From: Patescibacteria group bacterium
Lineage (GTDB): Bacteria > Bacteroidota > Ignavibacteria > Kapaibacteriales > DASPKH01
Direction: 5' to 3'
NCBI GenBank assembly: GCA_035628175.1
Contig: DASPKH010000206.1
Coordinates: 1 to 43,044 of the forward strand
DNA: 43,044 nucleotides
The translations under genes were made by a program, and so were the position numbers. Below the pieces are notes generated by a model. The model saw only the letters and a list, made by a program, of their open reading frames with translations. It searched no databases and was not told the DNA's origin. Positions 6,210-42,861 of the stretch are shown here, piece after piece (position 1 is the first letter of the stretch; each line of letters opens with the position of its first letter).

Positions 6210-7874
6210 ATGTCAGTAAAAAAAATATATCTGCTTGCACTACTGTCCGGGATTCTCCTTGGACTTACATATCCACCATTTCCGCTTGGTATTCTTGCAT
6301 TTTTTGGTTTTGTACCTCTTTTAAAAGCCCTGGAAGAAAAACGTACGATTGGCCAGACCCTTAGTCTCCTCTATCTGTGTTTCTTTGTCTATCATGGTAT
6401 AGCAAACTGGTGGGTGGGAAGCTGGCAGCCTGAAGCTGATCCCTACCTGCTTGCTTCAGGTATAGCGCTCTGGCTTGGCCATCCATTCTTTTTTATGGTG
6501 CCTGTAGCCGGCTATTTGTTTTTAAAAAAAACTATGGGTCGCGAGAGGGCGCTATGGTGTTTCCCGCTTTTATGGACAGCATTTGAGTGGCTGCATGGTC
6601 TTGGAGAATTTTCATATCCGTGGGTATCGTTGGGCTATTCACAGATCTATCATACATACTGGGTACAGATTGCCGATATTGGCGGCATATGGTGCATTAC
6701 GTTTGTTATAGTGCTCGTTAATTCGCTTATTTCGCAAATATATTTCTCATTTAAGGAAAATGCTGCAAATGAGGCACGTAGCGGATTTTTTAAAACTCCT
6801 TTTGCATTCAAGAGGATACTTGCTATTGCTTGTTGTATAATCGCACCGATTATATATAGTCAGATAAAACTTGTAGAATACTCTCATAATAACCTTTTAA
6901 AAAACTCTCCGCGGAAGATTTCGGTCGGGATAATACAGCCGAATATCAATCCGTGGAGAAAGTGGGGTGATGATCCAAACGCCCGCATTGAGCAATTATA
7001 TATGCATCAGCGCATTCAGGATTCACTCCGTTATTCTGCGGGTGGCCGGCTCGACATGACAGTGTGGAGCGAAACCTCGATTCCGATGTATATTCTTACA
7101 CCGCAGGAATATTTCTACTTTCATCCTTTAAAAAACTGGATTGATACATCAGAGACAGCTCTCTTAAGCGGCTTTCCAGACCTCTTCTTTTATGAAGATT
7201 CTTTTAAAGCACCCCCGTCGTCCAAACAAATGAACGACGGGTCGGGTCAGCGCTATGATACCTATAATGCTGCATTCCTTTTAAACCCTTATGCTTCTGA
7301 ACCCCAGACATACCGCAAGATGAAGCTCACGCCCTTTGCAGAACGAGTACCCTATGCAGATGAATTTTCCTTTGCTCTTTCACTGTTTGAGTGGGGAGTG
7401 GGAATTTCCGGTTATGGAAAAGGCCCGAAACAGGAAACGATGATTTTAAAAACAAAAAACGGCAATGTTGAGCTAGGCAGTATTATTTGTATCGAATCAA
7501 TTTACCCTGATTTTGTGCGGAATTTTGTAGTACAGGGCGCTGAATTACTCACAATTATCACCAATGACGCTTGGTTTGACCACACACCGGGGCCTGAACA
7601 GCATTATCAGATTGGAGCAATGAGAGCGATTGAAAACCGGCGCTATATTGCGCGCTGTGGTAATACTGGCGTCTCAGGTTTTATCACGCCCACAGGCAAT
7701 TCTTTAAAGCGGGCCCCACAATACACTGCTGTCGGTATCGCCGAAACACTTCCACTTTTGAAAGACCGCTCAATCTATACACGCTTTGGCGACTGGCTCC
7801 CCCAGCTCTGTACAGGTGTTTCGGTGCTTACTCTGCTTGCAGGCGTGTTTTTAAAAAGAAAAAAGGCTTTTTAA
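6210..7874 (+). CDS. lnt: Apolipoprotein N-acyltransferase
   Basis: Multi-TM N-terminal half followed by a CN-hydrolase domain. The E-K-C triad contexts are VWSETS, RKMKLTPFAE and ICIESIYP. Length is 554 aa. Confidence 0.9.
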   Translation: MSVKKIYLLALLSGILLGLTYPPFPLGILAFFGFVPLLKALEEKRTIGQTLSLLYLCFFVYHGIANWWVGSWQPEADPYLLASGIALWLGHPFFFMVPVAGYLFLKKTMGRERALWCFPLLWTAFEWLHGLGEFSYPWVSLGYSQIYHTYWVQIADIGGIWCITFVIVLVNSLISQIYFSFKENAANEARSGFFKTPFAFKRILAIACCIIAPIIYSQIKLVEYSHNNLLKNSPRKISVGIIQPNINPWRKWGDDPNARIEQLYMHQRIQDSLRYSAGGRLDMTVWSETSIPMYILTPQEYFYFHPLKNWIDTSETALLSGFPDLFFYEDSFKAPPSSKQMNDGSGQRYDTYNAAFLLNPYASEPQTYRKMKLTPFAERVPYADEFSFALSLFEWGVGISGYGKGPKQETMILKTKNGNVELGSIICIESIYPDFVRNFVVQGAELLTIITNDAWFDHTPGPEQHYQIGAMRAIENRRYIARCGNTGVSGFITPTGNSLKRAPQYTAVGIAETLPLLKDRSIYTRFGDWLPQLCTGVSVLTLLAGVFLKRKKAF

Positions 7875-7988
7875 AGTTTGATAAAAAACTTTTTAAAACT
7901 TCTTTTCAAAAACTTCGTAAAACATTATAAATTCGTTTCTTAAAAAGATAATTTATCATTGTTGATCTACTTTTAAAGGATTTTTTCT

Positions 7989-9332
7989 ATGAAAATTCCG
8001 GGAATTTTGCGTTTGCAAAACCTTGCTGTAGCTATCGCAGCATTTGCCGTTTTTTACGTGCCGGCTAAGGCGCAGTTTAAGCCAATTACTTTTTCTGAAT
8101 ACACACTGCCAAATGGCCTGCATGTGATCCTGCACCGTGATGAATCAGCACCCGTTGTTTCTACAGTGGTGCATTACCGCGTGGGTGCGCGTGATGAAGA
8201 TCCTACACGATCAGGCTTTGCGCACTTTTTCGAGCACCTGATGTTTGAAGGTACAAGCAATATCGAGCGCGCCGCGATGAGCGGTTACGTGCAGGAAGCA
8301 GGCGGCACGCTTAATGCGTACACTTCCTTTGATGAAACAGTGTACCAATTTACGCTTCCATCAAATGAATTAAAGCTTGCGCTTTGGATCGAATCTCAGC
8401 GTATGCGTAGTCTGCTTGTGGATGAAATTGGCGTTCAAACACAGCGAGGTGTAGTAAAGGAAGAGCGCAAAAACCGCTATGACAATGCACCGTACGGCAC
8501 ATGGATGGAATCTATTTTTAAAAATCTTTTTGGTACGGGAACATACTCGTGGACGCCGATTGGTTCAGCACAGCATATCGATTCAGCAAAAATTGATGAA
8601 TTCCGCTCGTTTTATAATCAGTTTTATCAGCCGAATAATGCTACACTCGTGATCGCAGGCGACTTTAATATGACGGAAGCGCGCGAGTGGGTAGATCAAT
8701 ATTTCGGTGGGTTTAAAAATGCTGGTGATATAAAGCGCAACCAGATGAATGTAACTCAGATACAAAACGAAGTACGTCAGACAGTTGAAGATCCAAAGGC
8801 GCAGCTTCCCGCTGTGTTTATTGGTTTTACCGGCCCGAAAAAAGGCAGCTCGGATATCTACGCAATGGAAATGCTGACTGATATTCTTTCTAATGGAGAA
8901 AGCTCACGTATGTACCGCCGCCTGGTAGACCAAGACCAGATCGCTGTGGCAGCGCAATCATTTGCCTTTGACCTGCAATACGGTGGCGCGCTGATTGCTC
9001 TTGGCGTTGCAGCTCCCGGCAAAGATATTTCCATTGTTGAAAAAACAATTTATGATGAGATTAACCGCATTGTTCGCGAAGGTGTCACTGATAAAGAATT
9101 TGAGAAAGCGCGTAATATTATTGAGGCCAAATTCGTACAGGGAAAAAAAGGAACGCTTGAAAAGGCGATCGCTTTGGCGCAATACCATACATATTTTGGA
9201 AGTGCATCGGTTATCAACAATGAAATTGACCGCTACATGAAAGTAACAAAGGCCGACCTACAGCGTGTGGCTCAGCAGTATCTCAATAGCGACAAGCGTG
9301 TAGTGCTTACCTACTTGCCAAAAGGCCAATAA
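7989..9332 (+). CDS. M16 (pitrilysin/insulinase) family zinc peptidase, catalytic subunit
   Basis: Signal peptide, then the inverted zinc motif HxxEH in GFAHFFEHLMFEGT. The length (447 aa) is typical. Confidence 0.9.
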   Translation: MKIPGILRLQNLAVAIAAFAVFYVPAKAQFKPITFSEYTLPNGLHVILHRDESAPVVSTVVHYRVGARDEDPTRSGFAHFFEHLMFEGTSNIERAAMSGYVQEAGGTLNAYTSFDETVYQFTLPSNELKLALWIESQRMRSLLVDEIGVQTQRGVVKEERKNRYDNAPYGTWMESIFKNLFGTGTYSWTPIGSAQHIDSAKIDEFRSFYNQFYQPNNATLVIAGDFNMTEAREWVDQYFGGFKNAGDIKRNQMNVTQIQNEVRQTVEDPKAQLPAVFIGFTGPKKGSSDIYAMEMLTDILSNGESSRMYRRLVDQDQIAVAAQSFAFDLQYGGALIALGVAAPGKDISIVEKTIYDEINRIVREGVTDKEFEKARNIIEAKFVQGKKGTLEKAIALAQYHTYFGSASVINNEIDRYMKVTKADLQRVAQQYLNSDKRVVLTYLPKGQ

Positions 9333-9410
9333 TCTGCTTAAACCCAATGTTAAAAAGATTAGGACCTTGAAAAATTTTTAAAAGAAATTCCATATAAAAT
9401 TTAAAACCAT

Positions 9411-11489: not shown

Positions 11490-11508
11490 TCGTTGCAAAC
11501 TCTTTTAA

Positions 11509-11546
11509 AACTCTGAATGTCTTTGATGATGTTCAGAGTTTTTTGT
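11509..11546 (+). terminator. Intrinsic terminator after the M16 pair
   Basis: Stem AACTCTGAA / TTCAGAGTT followed by TTTTTTG. Confidence 0.5.
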
Positions 11547-11575
11547 TTTTAAAAACAACTGTCTTTTAAAAAATG

Positions 11576-11583
11576 TATTTTTG
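11576..11583 (+). promoter_or_regulatory. Candidate Bacteroidetes-type -7 box (TAnnTTTG)
   Basis: TATTTTTG followed by CA, about 40 nt upstream of the 11623 ORF. The same TTTGCA core recurs at 12426, 19820 and 34671. Confidence 0.3.
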
Positions 11584-11622
11584 CATAGAAATACTTTTTA
11601 AAAACTACTCTTGTAAAAAACA

Positions 11623-12381: not shown

Positions 12382-12425
12382 GTGATGTTTCCATTTTTAA
12401 AAATGAGAAAATATTAATTTTTGTG

Positions 12426-12433
12426 TACATTTG
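12426..12433 (+). promoter_or_regulatory. Candidate -7 box (TAnnTTTG)
   Basis: TACATTTG followed by CAGGAA, 32 nt upstream of the ATG at 12465. The context ATTTGCAGGAA is shared with 19820. Confidence 0.3.
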
Positions 12434-13617: not shown

Positions 13618-14436
13618 GTGCAATCCGAAGCCGCTCCCCAAAAAATTCTCATCGTTGTTCAGGCGCGAACAGGCTCCACACGCCTTCCCGGAAAAGTCCT
13701 CATGGACGTTTGCGGCAAGACGTTGCTCGAACGCCAAATGGAGCGCGTGATGGCCTCAAAACTTGCTTTTAAAAGCGTTGTTGCCACAACGACGGACGCG
13801 AGCGATGATGCGGTCGAACAATTATGCCGGAAAGCAGGAATCGAATGTTTCCGCGGCCATCCGACGGATTTGCTCGACAGGCATTATGCGGTGGGCGTAG
13901 CTTTTGGCGCGGATGCTGTGGTGAAAATTCCGTCTGACTGCCCGCTGATTGACCCGCGCATTATTGACAAAGTTTTGCAGGTTTTTAAAGAGGTCTGGGG
14001 CAAGGTTGACTTTGTGAGTAATCTGCATCCGCCGACATATCCTGATGGGAATGATGTGGAAGTGATGCCGATGTCTGTGCTTAAAACTGCATGGGAAGAG
14101 GCAAAAGGGGAGCACGAGCGCGAGCACACAACGCCGTTCATCTGGGATAATCCGCAGCGTTTTACAATCAAAAATGTCGAGTGGGAAAGCAGGCTGGACT
14201 ACTCCATGAGCCACCGCTGGACGATTGATTACCCCGAAGATTACGATTTTATAAAAGCTGTGTACGAGGAGTTGCTGCCGAAGAATCCGCTTTTTTCGCT
14301 GGAAGATATTTTAGAGCTTTTAAAAAAGCGTCCAGATATTTGCGCGATAAACGAGCATTATTGCGGTGTGAACTGGTATCGTAATCATCTTGATGTTTTA
14401 AAAACAGTTGGTGTGGAGAATACGAAGATTATTTAG
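13618..14436 (+). CDS. Cytidylyltransferase-domain protein (SpsF / acylneuraminate cytidylyltransferase family)
   Basis: GTG start. The N-terminal motif ILIVVQARTGSTRLPGKVL is typical of CTP_transf_3 enzymes. Length is 272 aa. Confidence 0.8.
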   Translation: MQSEAAPQKILIVVQARTGSTRLPGKVLMDVCGKTLLERQMERVMASKLAFKSVVATTTDASDDAVEQLCRKAGIECFRGHPTDLLDRHYAVGVAFGADAVVKIPSDCPLIDPRIIDKVLQVFKEVWGKVDFVSNLHPPTYPDGNDVEVMPMSVLKTAWEEAKGEHEREHTTPFIWDNPQRFTIKNVEWESRLDYSMSHRWTIDYPEDYDFIKAVYEELLPKNPLFSLEDILELLKKRPDICAINEHYCGVNWYRNHLDVLKTVGVENTKII

Positions 14437-14464
14437 GTTCTTATTCATCAAGCTTTTAAATATT

Positions 14465-14992
14465 ATGCTTAAAAGAATATTTGTCTTAATGGCGATTGTG
14501 CTGCTCGCAAGTTGTGATGACGGGGAAGAGCTGCATCCTTTAAAAATGAACAGAATTCCTTATGAGGGAAATGAGTTGAGAACTGATGGATATTATTATT
14601 CTGAAGCATTCTCAGAAAATGATATAAAGATACTTGTGTTGTATAGGAATGGAGTTTGTTTATTTGAAGTTACGGACTTTAAAGGCCAAGATACTTTAGG
14701 CTATATTGAAAACAACTTTTTACTTAACCCTCGCATCGCTCATTATTGGACCAGACCTTCTGACATTGGAGTATTCCAGATAAACAATAAGTCTCTTACA
14801 ATTGAAGTTTGGGACCCAGGATATGATAATATTGGTACGTACACATATAATTCTGAGATACTTAACGACACAACTTTTCGAGTAACAAAGCAAACTAATA
14901 ATCAGAGCGGCAATTCATATCCATACATACGCACATTTCGCTTTAAACAGTTTAGCCCAAAGCCGGATAGCACTAATAGATTTATAAAATAA
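14465..14992 (+). CDS. Hypothetical lipoprotein (AT-rich ORF)
   Basis: ATG at 14465 (the track ORF starts at 14408). Lipobox in MLKRIFVLMAIVLLASCDDGEE. Sampled 60-nt lines are ~27-35% GC, versus ~55-58% in flanking genes. Confidence 0.7.
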   Translation: MLKRIFVLMAIVLLASCDDGEELHPLKMNRIPYEGNELRTDGYYYSEAFSENDIKILVLYRNGVCLFEVTDFKGQDTLGYIENNFLLNPRIAHYWTRPSDIGVFQINNKSLTIEVWDPGYDNIGTYTYNSEILNDTTFRVTKQTNNQSGNSYPYIRTFRFKQFSPKPDSTNRFIK

Positions 14993-15048
14993 GATTTCAA
15001 ACTTTATAAAAACGACCTTTTAAAAATCAACGAACAACACAAAAAAAT

Positions 15049-15897
15049 ATGAATGTCCCTGAATTACAAAAAATGTCTTTAAAAGTGCGTGAGCATATTT
15101 TAAAAATGTCGACCGATGGCGGATGCTTTACGGGTGCGTCGCTGTCGTGCGCGGATTTGCTCGTGTATCTGTATACGAATTACCTGAATATTTCGCCGAA
15201 TAATTTTAAAAATCCTGAGCGCGATTATCTCTTTTTGTCAAAAGGGCATGACGTGCCGGCGCTGTACGGGACGTTTGTGGAGTTGGGCTGGATGGAGGCG
15301 GAGCGTCTGCAAAATCATTTAAAAACGAATGACTCGGTGTACTGGCATCCGAACCGGAATGTGCCGGGTATTGAGTTCCATTCGGGTTCGCTCGGGCACC
15401 TGCTGAGCGTGGCGATTGGCGTGGCGTACGACTGCAAAATGCGCGGCACGGACAATAAAATTCTCGTGGTGCTCGGCGACGGCGAACTGAACGAGGGTTC
15501 GGTGTGGGAAGCGTGCCTGACGGCACAGGCGTACAAGCTGGATAATCTCATCGCCGTGGTAGACCGCAATCATTTCCAGGCGAATATCCGAACGGAAGAG
15601 CTGATACCGCTGGAGCCGATTACGAATAAATTTGAGGCGTTCGGCTGGAATGCTGTTGGCGTGGACGGCCACGATTTCGACGCAATGGACGCCGCTTTTA
15701 AAAGCCTCGCTCTCGGGCAGGGAAAACCGTGCGCCGTAGTCGCCGATACCCTGCGCGGAAAAGGCGTGAAAAGTATCCAGGAGCGCGCCGACCGCTGGTT
15801 CTGCAACTTCCCGAAAGACGAAGTGGAAATGCTCCTGCGCGAGCTGCATGGCGAAACGATTGATGAGCTGAAAAGCGAAGTGCTGATTGTGCGGTAG
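15049..15897 (+). CDS. Transketolase, N-terminal (TPP-binding) subunit
   Basis: Motifs GHDVPALY, GSLGHLLSVAIGVA and the GDGELNEGSVWEA TPP-binding motif. The 282-aa length is typical of split transketolases. Confidence 0.9.
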   Translation: MNVPELQKMSLKVREHILKMSTDGGCFTGASLSCADLLVYLYTNYLNISPNNFKNPERDYLFLSKGHDVPALYGTFVELGWMEAERLQNHLKTNDSVYWHPNRNVPGIEFHSGSLGHLLSVAIGVAYDCKMRGTDNKILVVLGDGELNEGSVWEACLTAQAYKLDNLIAVVDRNHFQANIRTEELIPLEPITNKFEAFGWNAVGVDGHDFDAMDAAFKSLALGQGKPCAVVADTLRGKGVKSIQERADRWFCNFPKDEVEMLLRELHGETIDELKSEVLIVR

Positions 15898-15947
15898 AAT
15901 CCTTTTAAAAACTCTGAATTCTTTAAAAACTGAAATAAATTTTAAAA

Positions 15948-16856
15948 ATGACATACGAAAACGTTTTAGAAAATCTGGTGCAGTCGGACGACAGGTTTAT
16001 CGTGATGACTGCGGAAAACCGTGCAGCTATCCGCAATCTGCCGTCGAAAATCGGTAAACATTTTTTTGATGTGGGAATCGCCGAGCAGACGATGATTGGC
16101 GCGGCGGCGGGGCTGGCGTTGCGCGGGCGAATACCGGTGACTCATGCGCTGGCGGCCTTCCTGACGATGCGCGCGTATGAATTTATCCGGACGGACGTGG
16201 GCATTTCAGGGCTTCCGGTGAAGCTTGTGGGCGGCGTGCCGGGATTTCTCTCGGACGCGAACGGCCCGACGCACCAGGCGATAGAGGACGTGGCAATAAT
16301 GCGCGGCATCCCGAATATGTGCGTGTTTTGCCCGGCGGACGAGGAGGATATGCTCATCGGGCTGGAAACGGTTTTAAAAAGCGACAAGCCGTTTTACATT
16401 CGCTATAATAATTTAAAACCGGCGGTTTCGCACTCAAAGGATTTTGAAATCGGGAAGGCGGAGACAATTTCTGAAGGCGACGATATTACGATTTTGACCT
16501 ACGGAATGCTGCTGAAACAAGCTGTCGAAGCGGCGGAAATTCTCGGCGGCAAAGGCATGTCGGTACGCGTGGTGAATATGCGAACGCTGAAGCCAATTGA
16601 CACCGACGCGATTTTAAAAGCTGCTGCCGAAACAAAACTTGTCGTGACGCTCGAAGATCATTTTAAAACGGGCGGCCTCTACAGTATCGTTGCCGAAACG
16701 CTCCTTGACAATCAGCAAACCGCTAATGTACTGCCGATAGCGCTCGATAATAAGTGGTTCAAACCCGCGCTGCTGCCGGCTGTGCTGGAGTATGAGGGTT
16801 TTACCGGGCCGCAGATTGCGGAGAAGATTGAGAATAGGTTTTTGGTGGTGAGATAA
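15948..16856 (+). CDS. Transketolase, C-terminal (pyrimidine-binding) subunit
   Basis: Motifs FFDVGIAEQTMIGAAAGLAL, NGPTHQAIEDVAIMRGIPNM and a C-terminal transketolase_C domain. Length is 302 aa. Confidence 0.9.
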   Translation: MTYENVLENLVQSDDRFIVMTAENRAAIRNLPSKIGKHFFDVGIAEQTMIGAAAGLALRGRIPVTHALAAFLTMRAYEFIRTDVGISGLPVKLVGGVPGFLSDANGPTHQAIEDVAIMRGIPNMCVFCPADEEDMLIGLETVLKSDKPFYIRYNNLKPAVSHSKDFEIGKAETISEGDDITILTYGMLLKQAVEAAEILGGKGMSVRVVNMRTLKPIDTDAILKAAAETKLVVTLEDHFKTGGLYSIVAETLLDNQQTANVLPIALDNKWFKPALLPAVLEYEGFTGPQIAEKIENRFLVVR

Positions 16857-16900
16857 GCGGTTAGCAGTCAGCTTTCAGTTTGAAAAATAAGTTCTGAAAT

Positions 16901-16993
16901 TGTCATTGCGAGCGTAGCGTGGCAATCGCGAATACTTTGGACGCGTCATGCTGTATTTGCGATTGCCGCGTCGGAAGACCTCCTCGCAATGAC
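16901..16993. repeat. Long imperfect palindromic (REP/MITE-like) intergenic element
   Basis: Outer arms are GTCATTGCGAG (16902-16912) / CTCGCAATGAC (16983-16993). Inner arms are GGCAATCGCGAATAC (16921-16935) / GTATTTGCGATTGCC (16953-16967), with 1 mismatch. The loop contains ACGCGT. The 73-aa minus-strand ORF (16903-17124) is probably an artefact of this element. Confidence 0.6.
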
Positions 16994-17037
16994 GAACGTA
17001 CATTGTGAGTTTTAAAAGCCAAAAAATACCTAGCCTT

Positions 17038-17628
17038 ATGGCAACATTGCGCACATACGTTTTTGCTTTTTCGATGATTTTCTTTTCGGCGGGGAATGCT
17101 TTTGCGCAAAATCAATCCGAGCAAAATGAAGTAGTTTGCGATACTATTTATAAAAACTACAAAATAAGGTTAATTAAGATTGCTGAAGATGAGTACAATG
17201 AAGATGTTCCGAACACAATATTTTCCTTCCAAAAATTGATTAATGGGAAATATGTTGAAGTCTTTAAAGATTCTATTTACAGCAAATCCCAGTATGTGAT
17301 GTTTGAAGATTTTAATAAAGACAATGTTAAAGATATTCTTGTAAGTCATACTTCTGATACTCGAAGCAATGAGATGTACTATCTGTATTTACTGGACGTT
17401 AAGAATAACAGTTTAAAAAAAGTAAAAAGATTTACAGAGATTAAAAATCCCAGATTCATTCGTAAGTATGGCATCATAGAAAGCTATGTAGTATCTGGAA
17501 CAAATTGGTTGACATTTTACAAACTTGAAAAAGACACAATTAGAGAGTTTGAGGTTATCGTAACAGACAAGCAAGATAGCCCAAATTCATTTGATAAAGT
17601 TACAAGAAAGCGATTCAAAAAGTATTAA
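17038..17628 (+). CDS. Hypothetical secreted protein (AT-rich ORF)
   Basis: ATG at 17038 gives the signal peptide MATLRTYVFAFSMIFFSAGNAFAQ. A sampled line is ~30% GC. There is an FG-GAP-like DFNKDNVKDILV stretch. Confidence 0.65.
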   Translation: MATLRTYVFAFSMIFFSAGNAFAQNQSEQNEVVCDTIYKNYKIRLIKIAEDEYNEDVPNTIFSFQKLINGKYVEVFKDSIYSKSQYVMFEDFNKDNVKDILVSHTSDTRSNEMYYLYLLDVKNNSLKKVKRFTEIKNPRFIRKYGIIESYVVSGTNWLTFYKLEKDTIREFEVIVTDKQDSPNSFDKVTRKRFKKY

Positions 17629-17664
17629 AGAAAAATAAATAACTCAATTTTTAAAAAGAAAAAT

Positions 17665-19020
17665 ATGCCAAATAAACCCGATTTGAAAAACGATTTCCCC
17701 CAAATTAAAAAGTCGCAGGAATTGTACGAACGCGCACTTGAGTCAATTCCATGTGTGACGCAAACGCTGGCGAAAGGGCCGGGACAGCACACGAAAGGCG
17801 TTGCGCCGATTTATGCGACGAAGGGTAAGGGCGCGCACGTGTGGGATGCGGACGGCAATGAGTATATTGACTACACGATGGCGGTTGGGCCGTTGTCGCT
17901 GGGCTATTGCTATGAGGCGGTGGATGCGGCGATTCGCGAGCAGCTGAAGGACGGCATTACGTTTTCGCTGATGCACCCACTGGAGGTGGAAGTGGCGGAG
18001 CTGGTGAAGGGGCTCATCCCTAATGCGGAGTCTGTGCGCTTTAGCAAAACGGGCTGCGATGTAACGACTGCGGCGGTTCGCCTGGCGCGCGCGTTCACGG
18101 GCAAAAACACGGTTTTGTGCTGCGGCTATCACGGCTGGCACGACTGGTATATCGGCGTTACCGACCGCAGCGCCGGGATTCCGCAGGAAACGAAGGATTT
18201 GACGTACACTTTTAGTTACAATGATTTTGACTCGGTGCTGGCGGCGGTGGATGATGATACAGCAGCGATAATTCTTGAGCCGATTGTTTTTGAAGCGCCG
18301 AAGGATAATTTCCTTCACAAGCTGCGCGAACTCTGCGACGAGCGCGGAATTGTGCTGATTTTTGATGAAATGTGGACGGGATTTCGCCTCGCTTTAGGCG
18401 GCGCGCAGGAATATTTCGGTGTGAAAGCTGACCTCGCGTGCTACTCAAAAGCTGTTGCCAACGGAATGCCGATTTCGATTCTCGCCGGACGCCGCGACAT
18501 CATGCAGCTTTTGGAAAAAGACGTATTCTTCTTCACGACGTTTGGCGGCGAGGCGCTTTCGCTTGCGGCTGCAAAGGCGACGATAGAGGAATTGCGCGAC
18601 AAAAACGTGCCGCAATATCTCGACAAGCAGGGCGAAAAACTGAAGAACGGTTATAACGAAATCGCGACAGATCTCGGCATCAACAATTACACAAAATGCG
18701 CCGGATTTAACTGCCGGACAATCATGAGCTTCGACGCGAGCGCGGGAAATCCGCTGGAGCTGAAAACGCTTGTGCAGCAGGAAATGATTAAGCGCGGCGT
18801 GCTGTGGGGCGGCTTCCACAACATGAGTTTTTCGCATACGGATGCGGATATTGAGTTCACGTTAAGCGCATATCGCGAAGTGCTGCCAATTTTAAAAGAA
18901 GCGGTGGAATCGGGCAATGTGAAAAGCTTTTTAAAAGGCGAGCCGGTGGAAGCTGTTTTCCGCAAGACGGGAAATTTCAACATGAAACCGAAACGCGCGG
19001 CTGAGGTGAATGGGGCGTAA
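17665..19020 (+). CDS. Class-III (PLP) aminotransferase, glutamate-1-semialdehyde aminomutase-like
   Basis: Motifs YIDYTMAVGPLSLGY, CGYHGWHDW, FDEMWTGFR and the PLP-lysine context CYSKAVANGMP. Length is 451 aa. Confidence 0.9.
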   Translation: MPNKPDLKNDFPQIKKSQELYERALESIPCVTQTLAKGPGQHTKGVAPIYATKGKGAHVWDADGNEYIDYTMAVGPLSLGYCYEAVDAAIREQLKDGITFSLMHPLEVEVAELVKGLIPNAESVRFSKTGCDVTTAAVRLARAFTGKNTVLCCGYHGWHDWYIGVTDRSAGIPQETKDLTYTFSYNDFDSVLAAVDDDTAAIILEPIVFEAPKDNFLHKLRELCDERGIVLIFDEMWTGFRLALGGAQEYFGVKADLACYSKAVANGMPISILAGRRDIMQLLEKDVFFFTTFGGEALSLAAAKATIEELRDKNVPQYLDKQGEKLKNGYNEIATDLGINNYTKCAGFNCRTIMSFDASAGNPLELKTLVQQEMIKRGVLWGGFHNMSFSHTDADIEFTLSAYREVLPILKEAVESGNVKSFLKGEPVEAVFRKTGNFNMKPKRAAEVNGA

Positions 19021-19094
19021 GTTTTTAAAAACGGTTTAAAAATTGTAGATTAGCTTTTAAAAGGAAATTCTTTTTAAAAGCTAATTTTGTTTTT
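18957..19094 (+). repeat. Direct repeat copy A (3' end of the aminotransferase gene plus terminator region)
   Basis: Aligns with 19667-19803. The first ~71 nt differ at 6 positions. Both copies are followed by a TTTTAAAA-centred hairpin. Confidence 0.8.
19051..19083 (+). terminator. Hairpin terminator built from two TTTTAAAA copies
   Basis: 12-bp stem TAGCTTTTAAAA (19051-19062) / TTTTAAAAGCTA (19072-19083), followed by ATTTTGTTTTT. Confidence 0.6.
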
Positions 19095-19655
19095 ATGCAA
19101 AATCTTTTCAAAACAGTAGTTGTCGTTGGGCTTTTGATTTTACCAATGGATATTGTAGCTCAGGGTCGTAATGTAACAATATTTTTAAAAAATAGCACAC
19201 AGAGACGTGGAGAACTTCTGCTTGTTCGGGATTCTATCGTCGCGGTCCTGACAAGTAATGTTGAAAATACGAATGAAATTGTGCTATACCCGGAACGAAT
19301 AGAATTTGCTGCGCTATCTGATATTCAAAGAATACGAATACATGAAACTAATGTAGAGGGCGCAATACCGGGTTCATTAATCGGGGGCGGAGCGGGCGCT
19401 CTGTTTGGGCTGGGTACTTCCGGGCTTACAACAAAAAATACTGTTCCGTATATTTTTGAAAATTTCGCCATAGGAGCTATCTCGGGGCTAATCATCGGGT
19501 GGGTAGTGGCAACTTCAAAATCCGATGAGGAAAAGACTTTCTGGCCATCAGAAAAAAATCCACTCATAAAAATTAAATATTACGCACGTTTCGATAGTGT
19601 AGAACCCAGATTTATCGGGGATTTTATTGATGAACTTTTAAAAATAAGTAAGTAA
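19095..19655 (+). CDS. Secreted glycine-zipper protein, paralog 1
   Basis: Signal peptide, then GRNVTIFLKNSTQRRGELLLVRDSIVAVL, the Gly-zipper GSLIGGGAGALFGLG...AIGAISGLIIGW and the C-terminal YARFDSVEPRFIGDFIDELLK. Homologous to the next two ORFs. Confidence 0.75.
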   Translation: MQNLFKTVVVVGLLILPMDIVAQGRNVTIFLKNSTQRRGELLLVRDSIVAVLTSNVENTNEIVLYPERIEFAALSDIQRIRIHETNVEGAIPGSLIGGGAGALFGLGTSGLTTKNTVPYIFENFAIGAISGLIIGWVVATSKSDEEKTFWPSEKNPLIKIKYYARFDSVEPRFIGDFIDELLKISK

Positions 19656-19666: not shown

Positions 19667-19803
19667 GTTCCCGCAAAACGGGAAATTTCAATATGAAACC
19701 GAAACGCGCGGCTGAGGTAAATCAAGCGTAAGTTTTTAAAAATTAGTTTTAAAATTCAATAGCTTTTAAAAGATTATTTCTTTTAAAAGCTATTGCTGTT
19801 TAT
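19667..19803 (+). repeat. Direct repeat copy B: relic of the aminotransferase 3' end (19 codons plus stop) and a duplicated hairpin
   Basis: Reads RKTGNFNMKPKRAAEVNQA* versus RKTGNFNMKPKRAAEVNGA* in the real gene. Truncated upstream by TAA. The 14-bp hairpin is ATAGCTTTTAAAAG (19759-19772) / CTTTTAAAAGCTAT (19780-19793). Confidence 0.8.
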
Positions 19804-19901: not shown

Positions 19902-20492
19902 ATGAAAAGCCTTTTAAAAACAATTCTTCTCACGTGTAGTATCTTTTTAGCCTTATCTATTCATACATTTGCGCAGGGTCGCGAGGTCACAATTTATTTG
20001 AAAGATGGCAAGCAGAAAATGGGCGAGCTACTATCAGTACGGGATTCACTGGTCTCTATCCTGAAAAAACATATTGAATACGATGAGGATATTGCCAGCT
20101 ACCCCCAGCATGTGGAAATTGCTTTGATCCGTGATATTGAACGTGTACGGCTGGAGGAATATGATGTTTCGGGTGCGGGCAAAGGAGCTGCCATTGGAGC
20201 CGGGATCGGTGGAGCGATTGGGATGATAGCCGTTTCGGATAATTCTTATGCCGGTCACAGGCCGGAAACAGGCGAATATATAGGGGCCGCGGCTGGCGGG
20301 GCTATAGCTGGTGCTTTCTACGGGTTTATTATTGGCTGGGCTACAGCGATGATCATGTCTGAAGATGAGGAGATGGTGTTGCCATCAGCAACAAAGGGGT
20401 TACTGCGTATTCAGGAGTATGCCCGCTTTGACGAACGTGAGCCACGGTATGTGCGTGATATTATCAACAATCTTTTAAAAGAGCAGAAATGA
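19902..20492 (+). CDS. Secreted glycine-zipper protein, paralog 2
   Basis: GREVTIYLKDGKQKMGELLSVRDSLVSIL, GAAIGAGIGGAIGMIA...AAGGAIAGAFYGFIIGW and YARFDEREPRYVRDIINNLLK. Confidence 0.8.
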   Translation: MKSLLKTILLTCSIFLALSIHTFAQGREVTIYLKDGKQKMGELLSVRDSLVSILKKHIEYDEDIASYPQHVEIALIRDIERVRLEEYDVSGAGKGAAIGAGIGGAIGMIAVSDNSYAGHRPETGEYIGAAAGGAIAGAFYGFIIGWATAMIMSEDEEMVLPSATKGLLRIQEYARFDEREPRYVRDIINNLLKEQK

Positions 20493-21130
20493 AAGATCTC
20501 TTAAAAATATTGTGCTTCATAGCAATGTTCTCTTTCGGCTTTTTAACAACTGAGGCAAAAGGGCGTGAAGTAACGATTTTTTTAAAGGATTCTACCGAAG
20601 TAAAAGGCGAGCTGCTTTCGGTGCGGGATTCTCTCCTGGCAGTGGCTGTAGAGCGGATTTCACTGGATGAAGATATTGCGGCATATCCAGAGCGAGTAAG
20701 GGTCCTGGCTTTTAAAAATATAGAAAATATTACAATCGAAACAAATAATTATGTGATCCAAGGTGGACTTACCGGATTGGGGCTAGGAGCCGGATCAGCA
20801 ATCCTGGTAAATCAGGGCGGAGGTTTTTTTAGGAAAGGTGGCGTTACAGAAAGTGGCTGGGTAAATAGTGTTCAGTTCTTATTACAAACAACGCTTATAG
20901 GGATGGGAATTGGTAGTTTATTGTCTGATAATGAGGAAACTTTCCTATTTTCTCCTGCAACACATGACAGCACAGAAGTACACCATGGAAAAGATGGCTA
21001 TATGTTTTTCATTTCCTGCCATGAAGCGAAGATGCTTTTAAAGCAGCACGCCAGATTTGAATTCTCCGAGCCCCATCATCTCCGCGATATCATCAATGAA
21101 CAGTACCGAAATCCGACTCAGTCGGAATAA
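20489..21130 (+). CDS. Secreted glycine-zipper protein, paralog 3 (divergent C-terminal half)
   Basis: ATGA overlap with paralog 2. GREVTIFLKDSTEVKGELLSVRDSLLAVAV, GGLTGLGLGAGSAIL and HARFEFSEPHHLRDIINE. Confidence 0.75.
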   Translation: MKDLLKILCFIAMFSFGFLTTEAKGREVTIFLKDSTEVKGELLSVRDSLLAVAVERISLDEDIAAYPERVRVLAFKNIENITIETNNYVIQGGLTGLGLGAGSAILVNQGGGFFRKGGVTESGWVNSVQFLLQTTLIGMGIGSLLSDNEETFLFSPATHDSTEVHHGKDGYMFFISCHEAKMLLKQHARFEFSEPHHLRDIINEQYRNPTQSE

Positions 21131-22693: not shown

Positions 22694-22744
22694 TGAAATT
22701 TCTTTTAAAAACAAACTTTAAAAGGGAATAATGACTGCCATGTT

Positions 22745-24876: not shown

Positions 24877-24897
24877 GCCCCATTTTAAAAATGGAGC
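24877..24897. terminator. Hairpin between the convergent lipoprotein gene and serS, centred on TTTTAAAA
   Basis: GCCCCAT / ATGGAGC arms (1 mismatch) around TTTAAAA. Flanked by an A-run upstream and TTTTAAAATT downstream. Confidence 0.45.
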
Positions 24898-24917
24898 TTT
24901 TAAAATTAAAAAAAAAC

Positions 24918-34174: not shown

Positions 34175-34226
34175 TGGTATTTCCTTTTAAAAATTGGTTT
34201 TTAAAAACATTTGAAATTCAGAAGTC

Positions 34227-34234
34227 CAAAAATA
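34227..34234 (-). promoter_or_regulatory. Candidate -7 box (TAnnTTTG) for ald
   Basis: The plus strand reads CAAAAATA, which is TATTTTTG on the minus strand. It lies ~55 nt upstream of the ald ATG. Confidence 0.25.
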
Positions 34235-34305
34235 CAAAATGTTTTTAAAAGCCGCTTTTAAAAAACGTGCTGGCTTTTAAAAGTTCTGGCTATTTTGCAA
34301 CTATC

Positions 34306-39014: not shown

Positions 39015-39072
39015 AATTGTATTTTTAAAGAAATTTTTCAAATCTTCTAAAAGACTGATCTTTTTAAAAAAC

Positions 39073-40986
39073 ATGCCGGAAATTTCTTTAAAAACCAAAA
39101 TCAAACGGCTCGAGCAGCAAATTGCCAAGGCAAAAACTGCTTTTAAAAAAGTAGATGCGATGCTGGATCTGGCCGAATTGCTGAAGCAAAGCGATTCCAG
39201 ACATGCTTTCTCGCTTTTGGACGATGCGCTGACAATTTCGCGGCAGAATTCCTACGATCACGGAATGGCATACGCGCTGCTTCTTCTGGCGCAATTTCAC
39301 GATGTGCTGACCGGCGACCATAAAAAGGCGCTGCCACTTGCAGAGGAGTCACTCGCGATTTTTACAAAGATCAATTCACACGTTTTTAAAAGCCGGGTGA
39401 TCCGCGCCATCGGGAAGATTTATATTGGCCTGGGCGAGCATCAGCGGGCAGAAGAGTTTTTAAAAAAGGGTAAGGAACTCGCTGAAGAGCTCTATGATCG
39501 GGAAGGAATTGCATCAGCCGAGCTTGCCATCGCGTGCCTGCTCGACGACATGAACCGATATGATGAAGCAATTGAGCGGTACAAGTCAGCTTTAAAACTC
39601 AAACGTGAGCTGGGCGACGCCACCGGACAGTCTATTATTTTGAATAATCTCGGCGGTGTATACACTTCGATCGGGAATTTTTCAAAAGGGCTCGAATGCC
39701 ACAACCAGAGCTTGCATCTCAAAGATCAGTTGAACGACCGGCACGGAATCGCTGCATCGCTAAATAATATCGCGGGAATTTACCTTGCTTATGGCGATTA
39801 TGAAACAGGTCTGTCGAATCTTTTTAAAAGCTTGGAAATAAAACGTGAGCAGGGCAATACACAGGGCATCGCAAATACACTTTCCAATATCGGCATGGTC
39901 CAGACGGAAATTGGTGATTTGCATTCGGCGTTACAGTCGTTTACCGAGGCGCTGCAGTTGTATTCAAAGCTGGGCCAGAGACGATTTATCGCGCTGGCGA
40001 TGAACCACATCGGCGTTGCAAAGGTGCGGCTTGGAGCTTACACGCAGGGCATGGCGTGGCTGAAAAAAGCTTTAAAAATCCGCATTGAGTTGCAGGATGA
40101 TTATGGACTTGCCTCATCCTATTGCAATCTTGGCGAGGCACACCGTTTAAAAGGTGATTTTCCTCAGGCAATTCACTTTGGGCAACTCGGTGCCGATATC
40201 AGCAGGTCGCTTGGAGACAAAGAACGGTTGGCGCATCATTACACATGCCTTGCAGAAAATTATGCTGCAAATTCCTCCTATGCCGAAGCATTTGAAACTG
40301 CATATCAGGCGCTGGCCTTAGCGCGCGAGATTAACGACGCAAAGCAACAGGCCGCAGCTTTAAAACTACTGGCGGACACCTCTGAAAAAAAAGGCGACCT
40401 GCAGCAATCCATAAACTATTACCGACAATTTATTGAAGCCAGGCAGTTACTTCAGGAGCAACAAGTAAGGAATAAAGTCCAGACGCTTCTCATCGAATTT
40501 GATGTGGAGCGCATCAGGCACGAAGCCGAGATCAACAAACTGAAATCCGAACAATTTGAACGCGAGATCGCATTGAAAAATAAAGAATTGACAGCCCTTG
40601 CGCTCCATCTCGTCAATAAAAACGAGTTTTTAAAAACCATTGGCGAGCAGATCAGCGAGGATGTGACAAATACGAGCGAAGTGATTAAAAACCTTTCAAA
40701 AATCGTGCAGGATGGCGCGGGTTCCGAAACGGAATGGAAGCTTTTTGAAAAGCAGTTTTTACAGGTAAATCCTGATTTTACCACGCGCCTGGAAGAATCA
40801 TCCGGCGGCTCACTGTCGGCGACGGAGCTGAAAATCTGTTCGCTTCTACGTACCGGGCTCAATTCGCAGGAAGTGGCCAATGTGCTTTTCCTTTCAAAGC
40901 GCACGGTGGAAAATCACCGCTATAACATTCACCGCAAGCTCAAACTCGGCGAGCAAAAACTCGTCCCGTACTTGATGAAAGTGTAA
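39073..40986 (+). CDS. TPR-repeat transcriptional regulator with a C-terminal LuxR-type HTH
   Basis: About 9 TPR-like units (GIASAELAIACL, GQSIILNNLGGVY, GIAASLNNIAGIY, GIANTLSNIGMVQ...), a coiled coil and LSATELKICSLLRTGLNSQEVANVLFLSKRTVENHRYNIHRKLKL. Confidence 0.85.
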   Translation: MPEISLKTKIKRLEQQIAKAKTAFKKVDAMLDLAELLKQSDSRHAFSLLDDALTISRQNSYDHGMAYALLLLAQFHDVLTGDHKKALPLAEESLAIFTKINSHVFKSRVIRAIGKIYIGLGEHQRAEEFLKKGKELAEELYDREGIASAELAIACLLDDMNRYDEAIERYKSALKLKRELGDATGQSIILNNLGGVYTSIGNFSKGLECHNQSLHLKDQLNDRHGIAASLNNIAGIYLAYGDYETGLSNLFKSLEIKREQGNTQGIANTLSNIGMVQTEIGDLHSALQSFTEALQLYSKLGQRRFIALAMNHIGVAKVRLGAYTQGMAWLKKALKIRIELQDDYGLASSYCNLGEAHRLKGDFPQAIHFGQLGADISRSLGDKERLAHHYTCLAENYAANSSYAEAFETAYQALALAREINDAKQQAAALKLLADTSEKKGDLQQSINYYRQFIEARQLLQEQQVRNKVQTLLIEFDVERIRHEAEINKLKSEQFEREIALKNKELTALALHLVNKNEFLKTIGEQISEDVTNTSEVIKNLSKIVQDGAGSETEWKLFEKQFLQVNPDFTTRLEESSGGSLSATELKICSLLRTGLNSQEVANVLFLSKRTVENHRYNIHRKLKLGEQKLVPYLMKV

Positions 40987-40999
40987 TTTTAAAAAAATT

Positions 41000-41659
41000 T
41001 TAAAAATTATTCTTAATATCCTTTTCGTCCGTTTTTACAAAAATCGTTTTTAAAACGTCGCCCGTTTCATCCAGTTGTAAAGCCGTTAGCCCCGCACCAT
41101 ACACAGCAGCAGTGTCAATATTCCATGATTGTGAGGCTTCGTTGAATTTGGGCGTTCCGTCCAGCTGTGGAGTGTGCCCGTGAATCTGAAGCTTTCCGAT
41201 ATTTTTTAAAAGCGAGCGCGTCCAGATAATATTTTCAGAATGATTTTCTTTAAAAGGATCATCTGTCAGTGAACTAATCCCCGCGTGACTGATAAACACG
41301 CACTCATTTTCCCAAAAAAGCGGCAGCATTTCAAACCAGTGCAGGTCGCTTTCAACATCCCTTTTTAAAGACTCATATTGTGCAACTGTCTGCGCGCCAC
41401 CCTGCATAAGCCAGCCGGGGATTTCCCGTTTGCGAAAATGCTCCAGCATCAGTGCTTCGTGGTTTCCTTTTAAAAAAACTGCTTGATGCTCTTCCTGTAA
41501 TTCACGCGCATACCCCACCGTTTCCGGCGCGAAATTTCCGCGGTCAATCAGATCACCAACCTGCACGAGCAAATCCTCGCCCGGCTGAAAATTCTCATCA
41601 ACCAGCTTTTTAAAAGTATAATAGCATCCGTGGACGTCGCCAACGACAAGAATACTCAT
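41000..41659 (-). CDS. Metallophosphoesterase (PPP-family Ser/Thr phosphatase / ApaH-like)
   Basis: The motif series is GDVHG, GDLIDRG, GNHE and HGHTP. Confidence 0.85.
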   Translation of the reverse strand: MSILVVGDVHGCYYTFKKLVDENFQPGEDLLVQVGDLIDRGNFAPETVGYARELQEEHQAVFLKGNHEALMLEHFRKREIPGWLMQGGAQTVAQYESLKRDVESDLHWFEMLPLFWENECVFISHAGISSLTDDPFKENHSENIIWTRSLLKNIGKLQIHGHTPQLDGTPKFNEASQSWNIDTAAVYGAGLTALQLDETGDVLKTIFVKTDEKDIKNNF

Positions 41660-41685
41660 GATGTGGTAAGAATTCAGTTTTAAAA

Positions 41686-42246
41686 CTATTTCACATATTT
41701 TTCAATAGCAATCAAAAACGGCGGAAAGTTCTTGTTAATCGCGCGATATTCTATCACGGCAAATTGCTGATTCGGCAGATTCTGCGCAAATTGCCGTACA
41801 GCATCCGCTTCAATACTGCCTTCGGCATGGCCAAGATAACAAATGACCGTGATCAGCCCACCAGGTTTTAGAAGATTGATTGCTGCCTCAATTGCGCGAA
41901 CTGTCGTTTCCGGTTCCGTGATAATCGACTTGTCGCCATGCGGCAAATACCCCAAATTGAACATCACCGCCGTAACATCACCTTTTAAAAACTCCTCCAT
42001 GCGCTCATGCCCGGCGTGAATAATCTCCGCACGATTATCAAAACCACTTTTTAAAAGCACTTCCCGCGTTTTTAAAACCGCCTGCTCCTGAATATCGAAG
42101 CCGTATACTTTTCCTGTTTCACTCACTAATTCTGCAAGGAGAAGCGTGTCGTGTCCGTTGCCGACAGTTGCGTCAATGGCGATGTCGCCAGGTTGGATGT
42201 GGGCGGCTATGAGTTTTTTTGCGAAGATGAGTGCGTTGTCGAGCAT
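41686..42246 (-). CDS. Class I SAM-dependent methyltransferase, YtqB/MnmM-like
   Basis: The DATVGNGHDTLLLAE motif, FNLGYLPHGDK and the 186-aa length match the YtqB-type putative RNA methylase family. Confidence 0.75.
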   Translation of the reverse strand: MLDNALIFAKKLIAAHIQPGDIAIDATVGNGHDTLLLAELVSETGKVYGFDIQEQAVLKTREVLLKSGFDNRAEIIHAGHERMEEFLKGDVTAVMFNLGYLPHGDKSIITEPETTVRAIEAAINLLKPGGLITVICYLGHAEGSIEADAVRQFAQNLPNQQFAVIEYRAINKNFPPFLIAIEKYVK

Positions 42247-42311
42247 TAACTTGAAGTAAAAAGTAAAAAGGTAAAAGGAAAAATTTTAAGAAATAATTGT
42301 GAACAACATAC

Positions 42312-42764
42312 TTAGCGGCACTCTACAACAATATCAACTGGATTCTTTATTTTAATTTTCCATACACAGCCATTTGTGCTGGTTGCATAAATTTCATCAT
42401 CTAGAACAGATAACTTATCGAACGGATTTGATTCATTAAAAAAAGCAATCCAAATTAGATTTTTGGATGACAAATCAAAAACACTTACAAACCCATCACT
42501 ACCGTAGCTTGCTTCACCTCCCCATATTTCAATAGATTGCTGTGTATCAATCATACTAACCAATACAGCACAACTAGTCCAGTATAATTCTCCTTCACCT
42601 TTAAGCCCATCTACGGTTGTTTTTGCTCCTTTTTTTACAGAGTAATTAGCTGGACGGCCCCAATCGATACTAATATTCAAAAGAAAAATTGAGCCATCTG
42701 GATATACAATTCCGTCTACTGATGGACATTCTTGATGGTCGAAAAATCGCAATAAGTCCTGCAT
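42312..42764 (-). CDS. Hypothetical protein (AT-rich ORF, beta-rich)
   Basis: 150-aa ORF with no signal peptide and no recognised family. A sampled line is ~37% GC. No TTTTAAAA. Confidence 0.5.
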   Translation of the reverse strand: MQDLLRFFDHQECPSVDGIVYPDGSIFLLNISIDWGRPANYSVKKGAKTTVDGLKGEGELYWTSCAVLVSMIDTQQSIEIWGGEASYGSDGFVSVFDLSSKNLIWIAFFNESNPFDKLSVLDDEIYATSTNGCVWKIKIKNPVDIVVECR

Positions 42765-42861
42765 TGTATAATTAGTTTAAGTTCAATAATTCTTTTTAAA
42801 AATCAAAAATACCGCAATTACGTATTTTTACAATCCTTTTAAAAAAACACGACTTTTAAAA

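Follow-up and report, generated by a model that had tools for sequence, protein, structure and literature searches.

Why does the AT-only 8-base palindrome TTTTAAAA recur about once per 300 bp in the DNA of an uncultured Kapabacteria-like bacterium, and does it behave like HIP1 of cyanobacteria or like a DNA-uptake sequence, as the initial annotation proposed? We addressed this in a window of 43,044 nucleotides (GCA_035628175.1, contig DASPKH010000206.1) and in related assemblies. An exact recount confirms the observation, giving 122 copies in the window against 1.46 expected from base composition (A = 0.281, T = 0.272), all within 6319-42861, with none in positions 1-6200. The copies start at 6319, 6520, 6788, 6895, 7444, 7849, 7891, 8516, 9376, 9790, 10337, 10471, 11275, 11503, 11547, 11564, 11596, 11906, 12107, 12395, 12450, 13767, 14318, 14396, 15018, 15098, 15204, 15696, 15903, 15940, 16372, 16612, 16661, 17010, 17649, 18890, 18929, 19023, 19055, 19072, 19183, 19636, 19734, 19747, 19764, 19781, 19912, 20473, 20710, 22589, 22703, 22743, 23134, 23264, 23278, 23330, 23399, 23456, 23747, 23903, 23972, 24028, 24117, 24154, 24883, 24898, 24972, 25488, 25650, 25836, 25901, 26253, 26897, 27129, 27925, 27968, 28272, 28374, 28625, 29025, 29292, 29606, 30917, 31532, 31574, 32124, 33012, 34185, 34199, 34243, 34256, 34275, 34748, 36332, 36379, 36394, 36853, 36947, 37321, 37649, 37682, 37877, 38909, 39062, 39141, 39384, 39458, 39822, 40628, 40987, 40998, 41048, 41204, 41468, 41608, 41678, 41983, 42049, 42070, 42794, 42837, and 42854. 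It is the most common 8-mer in the window, followed by its own one-base register shifts.

The motif-free beginning of the window is largely occupied by a single gene (108-5777, plus strand) encoding a 1,889-aa T9SS-sorted surface protein, with 0 copies in 5.7 kb. This protein contains 1.6% Lys and only two Leu-Lys and two Phe-Lys dipeptides, and full-length homologues at 38-44% identity occur in Ignavibacteria, Chlorobiota, and Kapaibacterium. It is therefore an inherited, Lys-poor gene rather than a foreign one. Contig DNA upstream of it carries 6 copies in 3.7 kb.

Two observations establish that the signal acts at the level of DNA rather than of protein or codon preference. First, 77 copies lie wholly inside coding sequences (CDS) and 45 in or across spacers, and a shuffle of synonymous codons that keeps every protein sequence, and hence every dipeptide, yields only 9.5±2.5 copies in CDS (maximum, 17) against the 77 observed. 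Second, the density is 14.9 per kb in intergenic DNA and 2.7 per kb in CDS, with about 1 copy per 65-87 bp of intergenic DNA, and 52 of 62 spacers carry at least one copy. The initial annotation also suggested that an observed/expected ratio near 1 under a high-order Markov model would refute the excess. The maximal-order ratio is in fact near 1 (122 observed, 119 expected), yet this test is uninformative here, since the 7-mers and 6-mers on which it conditions consist mostly of the motif itself. Expectations for orders 0 to 5 are 1.5, 4.8, 6.8, 16, 70, and 113.

Within CDS, the copies are read as nTT-TTA-AAA (52 copies) or nnT-TTT-AAA (25 copies), on genes of both strands. The third frame, held to be unusable in the initial annotation because it contains TAA, is used only where this TAA is the real stop codon, at genes 22745-23524 (copy at 22743-22750, minus strand) and 41000-41659. 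Codon choice depends on context, with Leu encoded by TTA in 75% of cases before AAA but in 8% elsewhere. Leu-Lys and Phe-Lys dipeptides are enriched in the clade described below (observed/expected, 1.94 and 1.64) but not in GC-matched outgroups (1.03 and 0.72), and TTA-AAA encodes 69% of Leu-Lys pairs in the clade against 10% in those outgroups. The Lnt gene (6210-7874, plus strand) contains six copies, read as LLK, FLK, FFK, LLK, ILK, and FLK, which confirms all six peptides listed in the initial annotation. The SerS gene (24918-26204, minus strand) contains five copies at positions where relatives outside the clade carry other residues (AAR to AFK, LVA to LLK, VLR to VLK). The word thus overrides synonymous codon choice and has changed amino acids.

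The unit is not a sharp octamer but a graded word, R-Y-TTTT-AAAA-R-Y, around a TTTAAA core (204 observed, 19 expected) that is extended independently by T (74%) and A (79%). The run-length table peaks at T4-5A4-5, while the AnTm control decays monotonically. The word is specific for the T-to-A orientation, with 297 copies of T4A4 pooled over three lineages (2.6 expected) against 15 of A4T4. One-base variants total 77 and 60 at positions 1 and 8 but only 14 and 15 at positions 2 and 7. The claim that many copies extend to 10-12-nt palindromes is only partly true, since CTTTTAAAAG occurs 11 times and GCTTTTAAAAGC twice. The flank preferences (Y at -1, R at +1, R at -2, Y at +2) are symmetric in both CDS and spacers but combine independently.

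Some spacer copies form short arrays. At 11503-11603, four copies, two of which start 17 bp apart, surround a canonical terminator hairpin (11507-11542) and a Bacteroidetes-type -7 box, TATTTTTG, an arrangement conserved in the two other lineages carrying the motif, L083 (4698-4833) and L168 (5755-5901). Of three copies at 19023-19087, two form the arms of a 19-bp hairpin (19047-19087) followed by a T run, a hairpin conserved in L083 (12985-13060) and L168 (13978-14052). Four copies at 19734-19795 are spaced 13, 17, and 17 bp apart, the last two forming a 17-bp hairpin (19757-19795). Five copies are located in a divergent intergenic region at 34185-34282. Between convergent genes, one of two copies at 24883-24905 sits at the apex of a terminator-like hairpin and the other supplies the T run, whereas two copies at 40987-41005 fill a 13-bp convergent spacer, the second containing the TAA stop codon of gene 41000-41659. 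Some intergenic copies have probably been co-opted locally, as arms or T runs of terminator hairpins and as elements near promoters.

The excess is present in independent assemblies of the window's own lineage (ENA ERZ27257313, Logan SRR7003765) and of two other, syntenic lineages, L083/L084 (JGI 3300043546, Logan SRR35182696) and L168 (NCBI GCA_040384025.1). Copy number differs between the three lineages, at 3.3, 4.6, and 5.0 per kb. In contrast, about 2.2 Mb of controls show no excess, comprising roughly 1.0 Mb from 80 more distant relatives of the same group at 45-64% identity, including GC-matched ones, and 1.15 Mb from unrelated Spirochaetota, Planctomycetota, and others. On this sampling, the property is confined to one small clade.

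Existing copies are retained over divergences at which synonymous sites are saturated. In the segment with 71-76% nucleotide identity, where four-fold degenerate sites are near saturation (0.35-0.53 identity), 17 of 19 window copies are kept in L083 and 14 of 19 (74%) in both other lineages, while AT-only control octamers score 25% and 11%. Codons are likewise better conserved inside the motif than outside (AAA, 0.90 against 0.62; TTA, 0.87 against 0.48). Gains and losses also occur, and new copies arise by single-base changes at near-motifs. Presence patterns for window/L083/L168 are 111 = 14, 011 = 7, 010 = 9, 001 = 6, 110 = 3, 101 = 2, and 100 = 0, and many absences are one-base near-motifs. 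In addition, a gene cluster at 13642-19093 (plus strand; CMP-sugar transferase, split transketolase, class-III aminotransferase) is 90-95% identical in all three lineages and still carries the motif at 1.5-4 per kb. Identity at its four-fold degenerate sites is 0.69-0.86, against 0.35-0.53 in the neighboring genes, which points toward gene flow inside the clade.

In every statistical test that we could run, the word matches HIP1 (GCGATCGC) and the alternate HIPs of cyanobacteria (Robinson 1995; Elhai 2015, PMC4390886; Xu, Lawrence and Durand 2018, PMC5861425), and the HIP1- or uptake-sequence-like behavior proposed in the initial annotation is supported. Both are octameric palindromes, found in CDS in every possible frame and in spacers, at 3300-5000 per Mb here against 300-2700 per Mb for HIP1 and with observed/expected ratios of about 80-170 against 15-300. 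In both, sites and their codons are conserved above control motifs, the tests applied to HIP1 by Xu et al., and one-base deviations concentrate at the two outer positions around a 6-bp core, as Elhai reported around the CGATCG methylase site. Like HIP1, the word is lineage-specific, with no equivalent word in the relatives examined. It differs in being AT-only rather than 75% GC, in occurring in the FCB group, in having one frame closed by TAA, and in being five times denser in spacers, and it has no sequence relationship to HIP1. The word also resembles the USS of Pasteurellaceae and DUS of Neisseriaceae in being a short, genome-wide overrepresented word shared by related lineages and absent from outgroups, tolerated in CDS at the price of particular peptides, with enriched one-off variants, some spacer copies paired as hairpins or terminators, and signs of recent exchange between motif-bearing lineages. 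However, USS and DUS are nonpalindromic, moderately GC-rich 9-12-mers occurring about once per kb. The density of one per 200-300 bp is similar to that probably reached by palindromic orphan methyltransferase sites such as Dam GATC in Escherichia coli and would suit strand discrimination or sequestration, although GATC reaches this density by chance as a 4-mer, whereas here a 6-8-mer had to be enriched about 100-fold. The core TTTAAA also corresponds to a type II restriction-modification site (DraI/AhaIII type), but such targets appear usually to be avoided rather than enriched in the host genome.

By analogy with HIP1 and with uptake sequences, we infer with moderate confidence that the word is the recognition site of a clade-specific, symmetric DNA-recognizing protein. 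The most likely candidates are an orphan N6-adenine methyltransferase for the 6-bp TTTAAA core, or a factor of DNA uptake, recombination, or repair that uses such a mark. HIP1 itself raises natural transformation in a methylation-dependent way (bioRxiv 10.1101/2024.09.10.611283) and has been proposed as an uptake watermark (bioRxiv 10.64898/2026.06.24.733823). No DNA methyltransferase, restriction enzyme, Vsr- or MutH-like nickase, or competence gene was seen in the roughly 85 kb of clade DNA examined, but this is only about 2% of a genome and says little either way. In addition, N6-adenine methylation offers no deamination route of the kind that makes cytosine-methylase-linked repair a plausible drive, high conservation cannot separate selection from drive, and spacing is not more regular than random once intergenic clusters are merged, which argues against a need for one site every N bp.

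A possible but less likely alternative is that an abundant nucleoid-associated or global transcription protein binds as a dimer to the flexible TpA hinge of T4A4, with copies selected mainly in spacers, where they help shape promoters and terminators, and CDS copies being lower-affinity spill-over or needed for chromosome compaction. The higher intergenic density (84% of spacers carry a copy), the short arrays with 10-13 and 17 bp spacing, the spacer arrangements conserved across the three lineages, and the graded, position-weight-like degeneracy of the word agree with this. Motif starts also cluster at -27 to -33, -10 to -12, and +20 to +24 relative to candidate TAnnTTTG -7 boxes, although these offsets rest on about 14 independent, unvalidated boxes. 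The intergenic density and these offsets fit a transcription or chromatin role at least as well as the recognition-site reading. However, 59-63% of copies lie in CDS, where they cost amino acid changes and create T_TTA_AAA slippery heptamers, no candidate protein is known, spacing is not regular, and Xu et al. found no promoter relation for the analogous HIP1 (PMC5861425).

It is more doubtful that the word is a functionless by-product of a lineage-specific mutation or repair bias, for example, a repair or polymerase activity that converts near-motifs into T4A4 and restores damaged copies. Many lineage-specific copies do sit opposite one-base near-motifs, one-off variants are themselves 2-20 times overrepresented, copy number differs between lineages, and conservation could equally result from continual restoration. 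Yet such a bias would have to be specific for an 8-10 bp symmetric word with a sharp length mode, for which no AT-only precedent is known, and strong enough to fix amino acid replacements. Any such repair system would itself need a protein that recognizes the word, which merges this reading with the one we favor.

An RNA-level word appears improbable. Because of the palindrome, transcripts from either strand contain UUUUAAAA, a potential site for an RNA-binding protein or RNase, or a translational signal, and most spacers in these tandem gene arrays are probably transcribed, 24 of 115 spacer copies lie within 6 nt of a stop codon or overlap it, and the commoner coding frame is a -1 slippery heptamer. 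Nevertheless, copies occur in divergent promoter regions and between convergent genes, the dyad-symmetric flanks are expected for duplex recognition, and Xu et al. found no RNA-level signal for HIP1 (PMC5861425). Finally, despite the maximal-order Markov ratio of about 1 and the preference for AAA and TTT as Lys and Phe codons (72% each), an ordinary effect of base composition, codon usage, or Lys-rich proteins, or a dispersed repeat element (REP or MITE), is refuted by the protein-preserving shuffle and by GC-matched relatives, which have 0-2 copies per 13-21 kb and lack the dipeptide enrichment. TTA is also a minor Leu codon except before AAA, a codon-driven excess of GATC and CGATCG in GC-rich relatives is only 1.3-1.4 times over the shuffle, and no sequence is conserved beyond ±2 nt, so the word is not a repeat element.

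Taken together, a small clade of uncultured Kapabacteria-like bacteria carries TTTTAAAA about once every 200-300 bases, kept there by a DNA-level force strong enough to rewrite codon choice and protein sequence, which makes it an independent, AT-only counterpart, outside cyanobacteria, of the unexplained HIP1 word. Under the inferred recognition-site reading, the word labels DNA as own-kind, and its abundance would then be built and kept by a mix of molecular drive, through preferential uptake, recombination, or repair of motif-bearing DNA, and selection.

The window (43,044 bp, 44.7% G+C) contains 122 exact copies of TTTTAAAA, all between positions 6319 and 42854, where base composition predicts 1.46. 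Pooled over three lineages, of which only 16-43 kb per genome could be read, we observe 297 copies against 2.6 expected. The word is the commonest 8-mer of the window, followed by its own register shifts. Expectations under Markov orders 0 to 6 are 1.5, 4.8, 6.8, 16, 70, 113, and 119, and thus the criterion proposed in the initial annotation for rejecting the excess, a ratio near 1 at order 6, is formally fulfilled. However, this test is uninformative for a word that dominates its own sub-words, as the sub-words used for the expectation are themselves mostly motif copies: TTTAAA occurs 204 times (19 expected) and is extended by T in 74% and by A in 79% of cases, independently of each other. 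The second criterion of the initial annotation is decisive. Shuffling synonymous codons within each gene, which keeps all protein sequences and so all dipeptides, yields 9.5±2.5 copies (maximum, 17) in coding sequences (CDSs), against 77 observed.

Of the 122 copies, 77 lie in CDSs and 45 lie in or across spacers, which make up 3.9 kb of the 37 kb that bear the motif. Pooled over the three lineages, we observe a density of 2.7 copies per kb in CDSs and 14.9 copies per kb in spacers, with 52 of 62 spacers carrying at least one copy. The CDS frames are nTT-TTA-AAA (52 copies) and nnT-TTT-AAA (25 copies), while the third frame appears only where its TAA is the real stop codon. In the commoner frame, at 52 sites such as 6319, 6520, and 6895, the word reads T_TTA_AAA, which has the X_XXY_YYZ form of a -1 ribosomal slippery heptamer, occurs about 1.5 times per gene, and is tolerated by the genome. 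The flanks are dyad-symmetric and are the same in CDSs and in spacers: R at -2, Y (T>C) at -1, R (A>G) at +1, and Y at +2. The run-length table peaks at T4A4, T4A5, T5A4, and T5A5 (70, 74, 56, and 47 copies, respectively) and collapses at runs of 6, whereas the AnTm control decays monotonically, and A4T4 is about 20 times rarer than T4A4. One-base variants are commonest at the outer positions 1 and 8 (77 and 60) and rarest at positions 2 and 7 (14 and 15). The unit is therefore a graded 8-10-bp palindrome around a TTTAAA core, and it is neither a product of run slippage nor a REP/MITE-type repeat element, since nothing is conserved beyond ±2 nt.

The word also leaves its mark on codon choice and on protein sequence. 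Leu is encoded by TTA in 85 of 113 cases before AAA, but in 75 of 892 cases before codons that do not start with AA. In the clade, the observed/expected ratio is 1.94 for Leu-Lys and 1.64 for Phe-Lys, and TTA-AAA encodes 69% of Leu-Lys pairs, compared with 1.03, 0.72, and 10% in GC-matched outgroups and 1.05, 0.91, and 35% in low-GC outgroups. At the five SerS copies, relatives outside the clade carry other residues, for example AAR against AFK, LVA against LLK, and VLR against VLK. The six Lnt peptides that the initial annotation listed as examples of a DNA word imposed on protein sequence are all present. The one long motif-free stretch is ORF1 (108-5777), a Lys-poor (1.6%) T9SS-sorted protein with only four Leu-Lys or Phe-Lys dipeptides. 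We considered ORF1 as foreign DNA and rejected this reading, as it has full-length homologues across Ignavibacteria and Kapabacteria; its lack of copies reflects composition.

The contig (NCBI HYF02956.1 and others) belongs to a MAG labeled "Patescibacteria group bacterium", yet its genes point to Kapabacteria. It encodes Lnt and a T9SS C-terminal sorting domain, candidate Bacteroidetes-type -7 boxes lie upstream of genes, and the best named SerS hits are Kapabacteria or Chlorobi at about 70% identity. The taxonomic label or the binning is probably wrong. Two further lineages are syntenic with window 6.2-19 kb and carry the same excess: L083, identical to L084, from JGI 3300043546 and Logan SRR35182696 (97 copies in 20.9 kb), and L168, from NCBI GCA_040384025.1 (78 copies in 15.8 kb). 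The excess appears in five independent assemblies, which shows that the property is real, and it is confined to one narrow clade. It was not found in GC-rich Kapabacteria, nor in 80 loci from relatives at 45-64% M16-peptidase identity, several of which have 40-45% G+C and hold only 0-2 copies, nor in 1.15 Mb of unrelated genomes, which hold 87 copies in total.

In two GC-rich Kapabacteria (L085 and L087; 62-63% G+C), GATC, CGATCG, and GCGATCGC are 4, 6.7, and 6-11 times above the base-composition expectation but only 1.2-1.7 times above a synonymous-codon shuffle, so this excess is mostly codon-driven and not HIP-like. A scan of viral contigs for triple arrays found only local 12-bp arrays in AT-rich and giant-virus contigs. 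Among the IMG/VR contigs, local arrays of TTTTAAAA with a 12-13 bp period (L273 14-1503, L209 573-725, and L169 2800-2831) resemble iterons or origins. None of the viral contigs showed a genome-wide excess, and no phage of this clade was identified. The contig L088 starts (1-206) with a 9-bp tandem repeat (CCATTAGT plus one base, 21 copies), which is probably an array at a contig end and is unrelated to the finding.

In the segment with 71-76% nucleotide identity among the lineages, identity at 4-fold degenerate sites is 0.35-0.53, which is near saturation. Nevertheless, 17 of 19 window copies (89%) are present in L083 and 14 of 19 (74%) in both other lineages, whereas AT-only control octamers score 25% and 11%, and other octamers 3-4% three-way. 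Codons are likewise more conserved inside the motif than outside (AAA, 0.90 against 0.62; TTA, 0.87 against 0.48). Presence patterns for window/L083/L168 are 111 = 14, 011 = 7, 010 = 9, 001 = 6, 110 = 3, 101 = 2, and 100 = 0, and many absences are one-base near-motifs. Copies are therefore retained for a long time, while gains and losses continue. The window lineage is the poorest of the three, with 3.3 copies per kb and, in the aligned segment, no private gains, while the other two have 4.6-5 copies per kb. In addition, a 5.5-kb cluster of CMP-sugar cytidylyltransferase, split transketolase (N and C), and class-III aminotransferase (window 13642-19093; L083 6996-13058; L168 7857-14053) is 90-95% identical in all three lineages, with 4-fold-site identity of 0.69-0.86 and a GC3 of 0.54-0.65 against about 0.4 in neighboring genes. 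This cluster also bears the motif and looks like a surface-sugar biosynthesis cassette recently exchanged horizontally within the clade.

Spacers contain canonical terminator hairpins and TAnnTTTG boxes, with motif copies around them. Two 17-19-bp hairpins are built from motif pairs (19047-19087 and 19757-19795) and are conserved in the other lineages. The candidate Bacteroidetes-type -7 boxes (window 11576-11583, 19082-19089, and other spacers, as well as the L083 and L168 orthologues) lie 4-125 nt upstream of start codons. Motif starts cluster about 27-33 and 10-12 nt upstream of the box start and 20-24 nt downstream of it, although this rests on about 14 independent, unvalidated sites. Of 115 distances from a stop codon, 24 are 6 nt or less. 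Spacing is clustered (CV, 1.22) but about random once spacer clusters are merged, and neither regular spacing nor helical phasing is supported. The upstream region, including a motif-pair hairpin, is duplicated (18990-19090 and 19700-19800) in a set of three tandem paralogous small secreted proteins (19095-19655, 19902-20492, and 20489-21130; 186-213 amino acids), which have no Pfam match and share the motif GR[NE]VTI[FY]LK. Rfam and tRNA scans were both empty.

The tests that we could apply from the HIP1 literature, namely over-representation, presence in the usable frames and in noncoding DNA, site and codon conservation above controls, and tolerance at the outer positions around a 6-bp core (PMC5861425, PMC4390886), support HIP-like behavior within the DNA that could be read. 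The word is not a member of HIP1, because both the sequence (TTTTAAAA rather than GCGATCGC or a one-step derivative) and the phylum differ. With uptake sequences it shares clade specificity, enriched one-off variants, an imprint on peptides, and some hairpin pairs. However, it is not a classical USS or DUS, because it is palindromic, at 8-10 bp rather than an asymmetric 9-12-mer, and occurs at 3.3-5 per kb, which is three to five times denser. Recent work links HIP1 itself to methylation-dependent natural transformation. We found no description of a TTTTAAAA excess in prokaryotes in the literature searched.

We therefore read TTTTAAAA as a new, AT-only highly iterated palindrome, most likely the recognition word of a clade-specific, symmetric DNA-recognizing protein, maintained by drive and/or selection. 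The partner and the process are inferred: no methyltransferase, nuclease, or competence gene lies in the window, L001, L083, or L168, although these represent only the roughly 85 kb of clade DNA that could be reached. The only predicted DNA-binding protein in the window is a TPR-rich protein with a C-terminal LuxR/GerE helix-turn-helix domain (39073-40986), and nothing links it to the motif. A role as a binding word for a nucleoid or transcription protein is a serious rival, because of the spacer bias. A pure mutation bias and an RNA-level role are less likely, and composition, codon usage, and repeat elements are excluded.

The function of HIP1 has been debated for 30 years and is hard to resolve, partly because there is essentially one example, confined to one phylum. 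Here, the same statistical syndrome appears with an unrelated, AT-only word, at even higher density, in a young and narrow clade of a different phylum whose sister lineages lack it, a contrast that allows a sharp comparative test. In practical terms, the word is a strong genomic signature for binning these organisms, and it distorts codon-pair and dipeptide statistics, which annotation and expression tools should take into account. It is possible, though we hold this only tentatively, that TTTTAAAA is an independently evolved, functional genome watermark of the HIP type in Bacteroidota-related bacteria, read by a clade-specific protein such as a methyltransferase or an uptake, recombination, or repair factor to tell own-kind DNA from foreign DNA. 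Hyper-abundant palindromes would then be a convergent, general solution rather than a cyanobacterial oddity, and the AT-only word, with its flexible TpA hinge, would give a second, orthogonal system in which to solve what HIP1 does.
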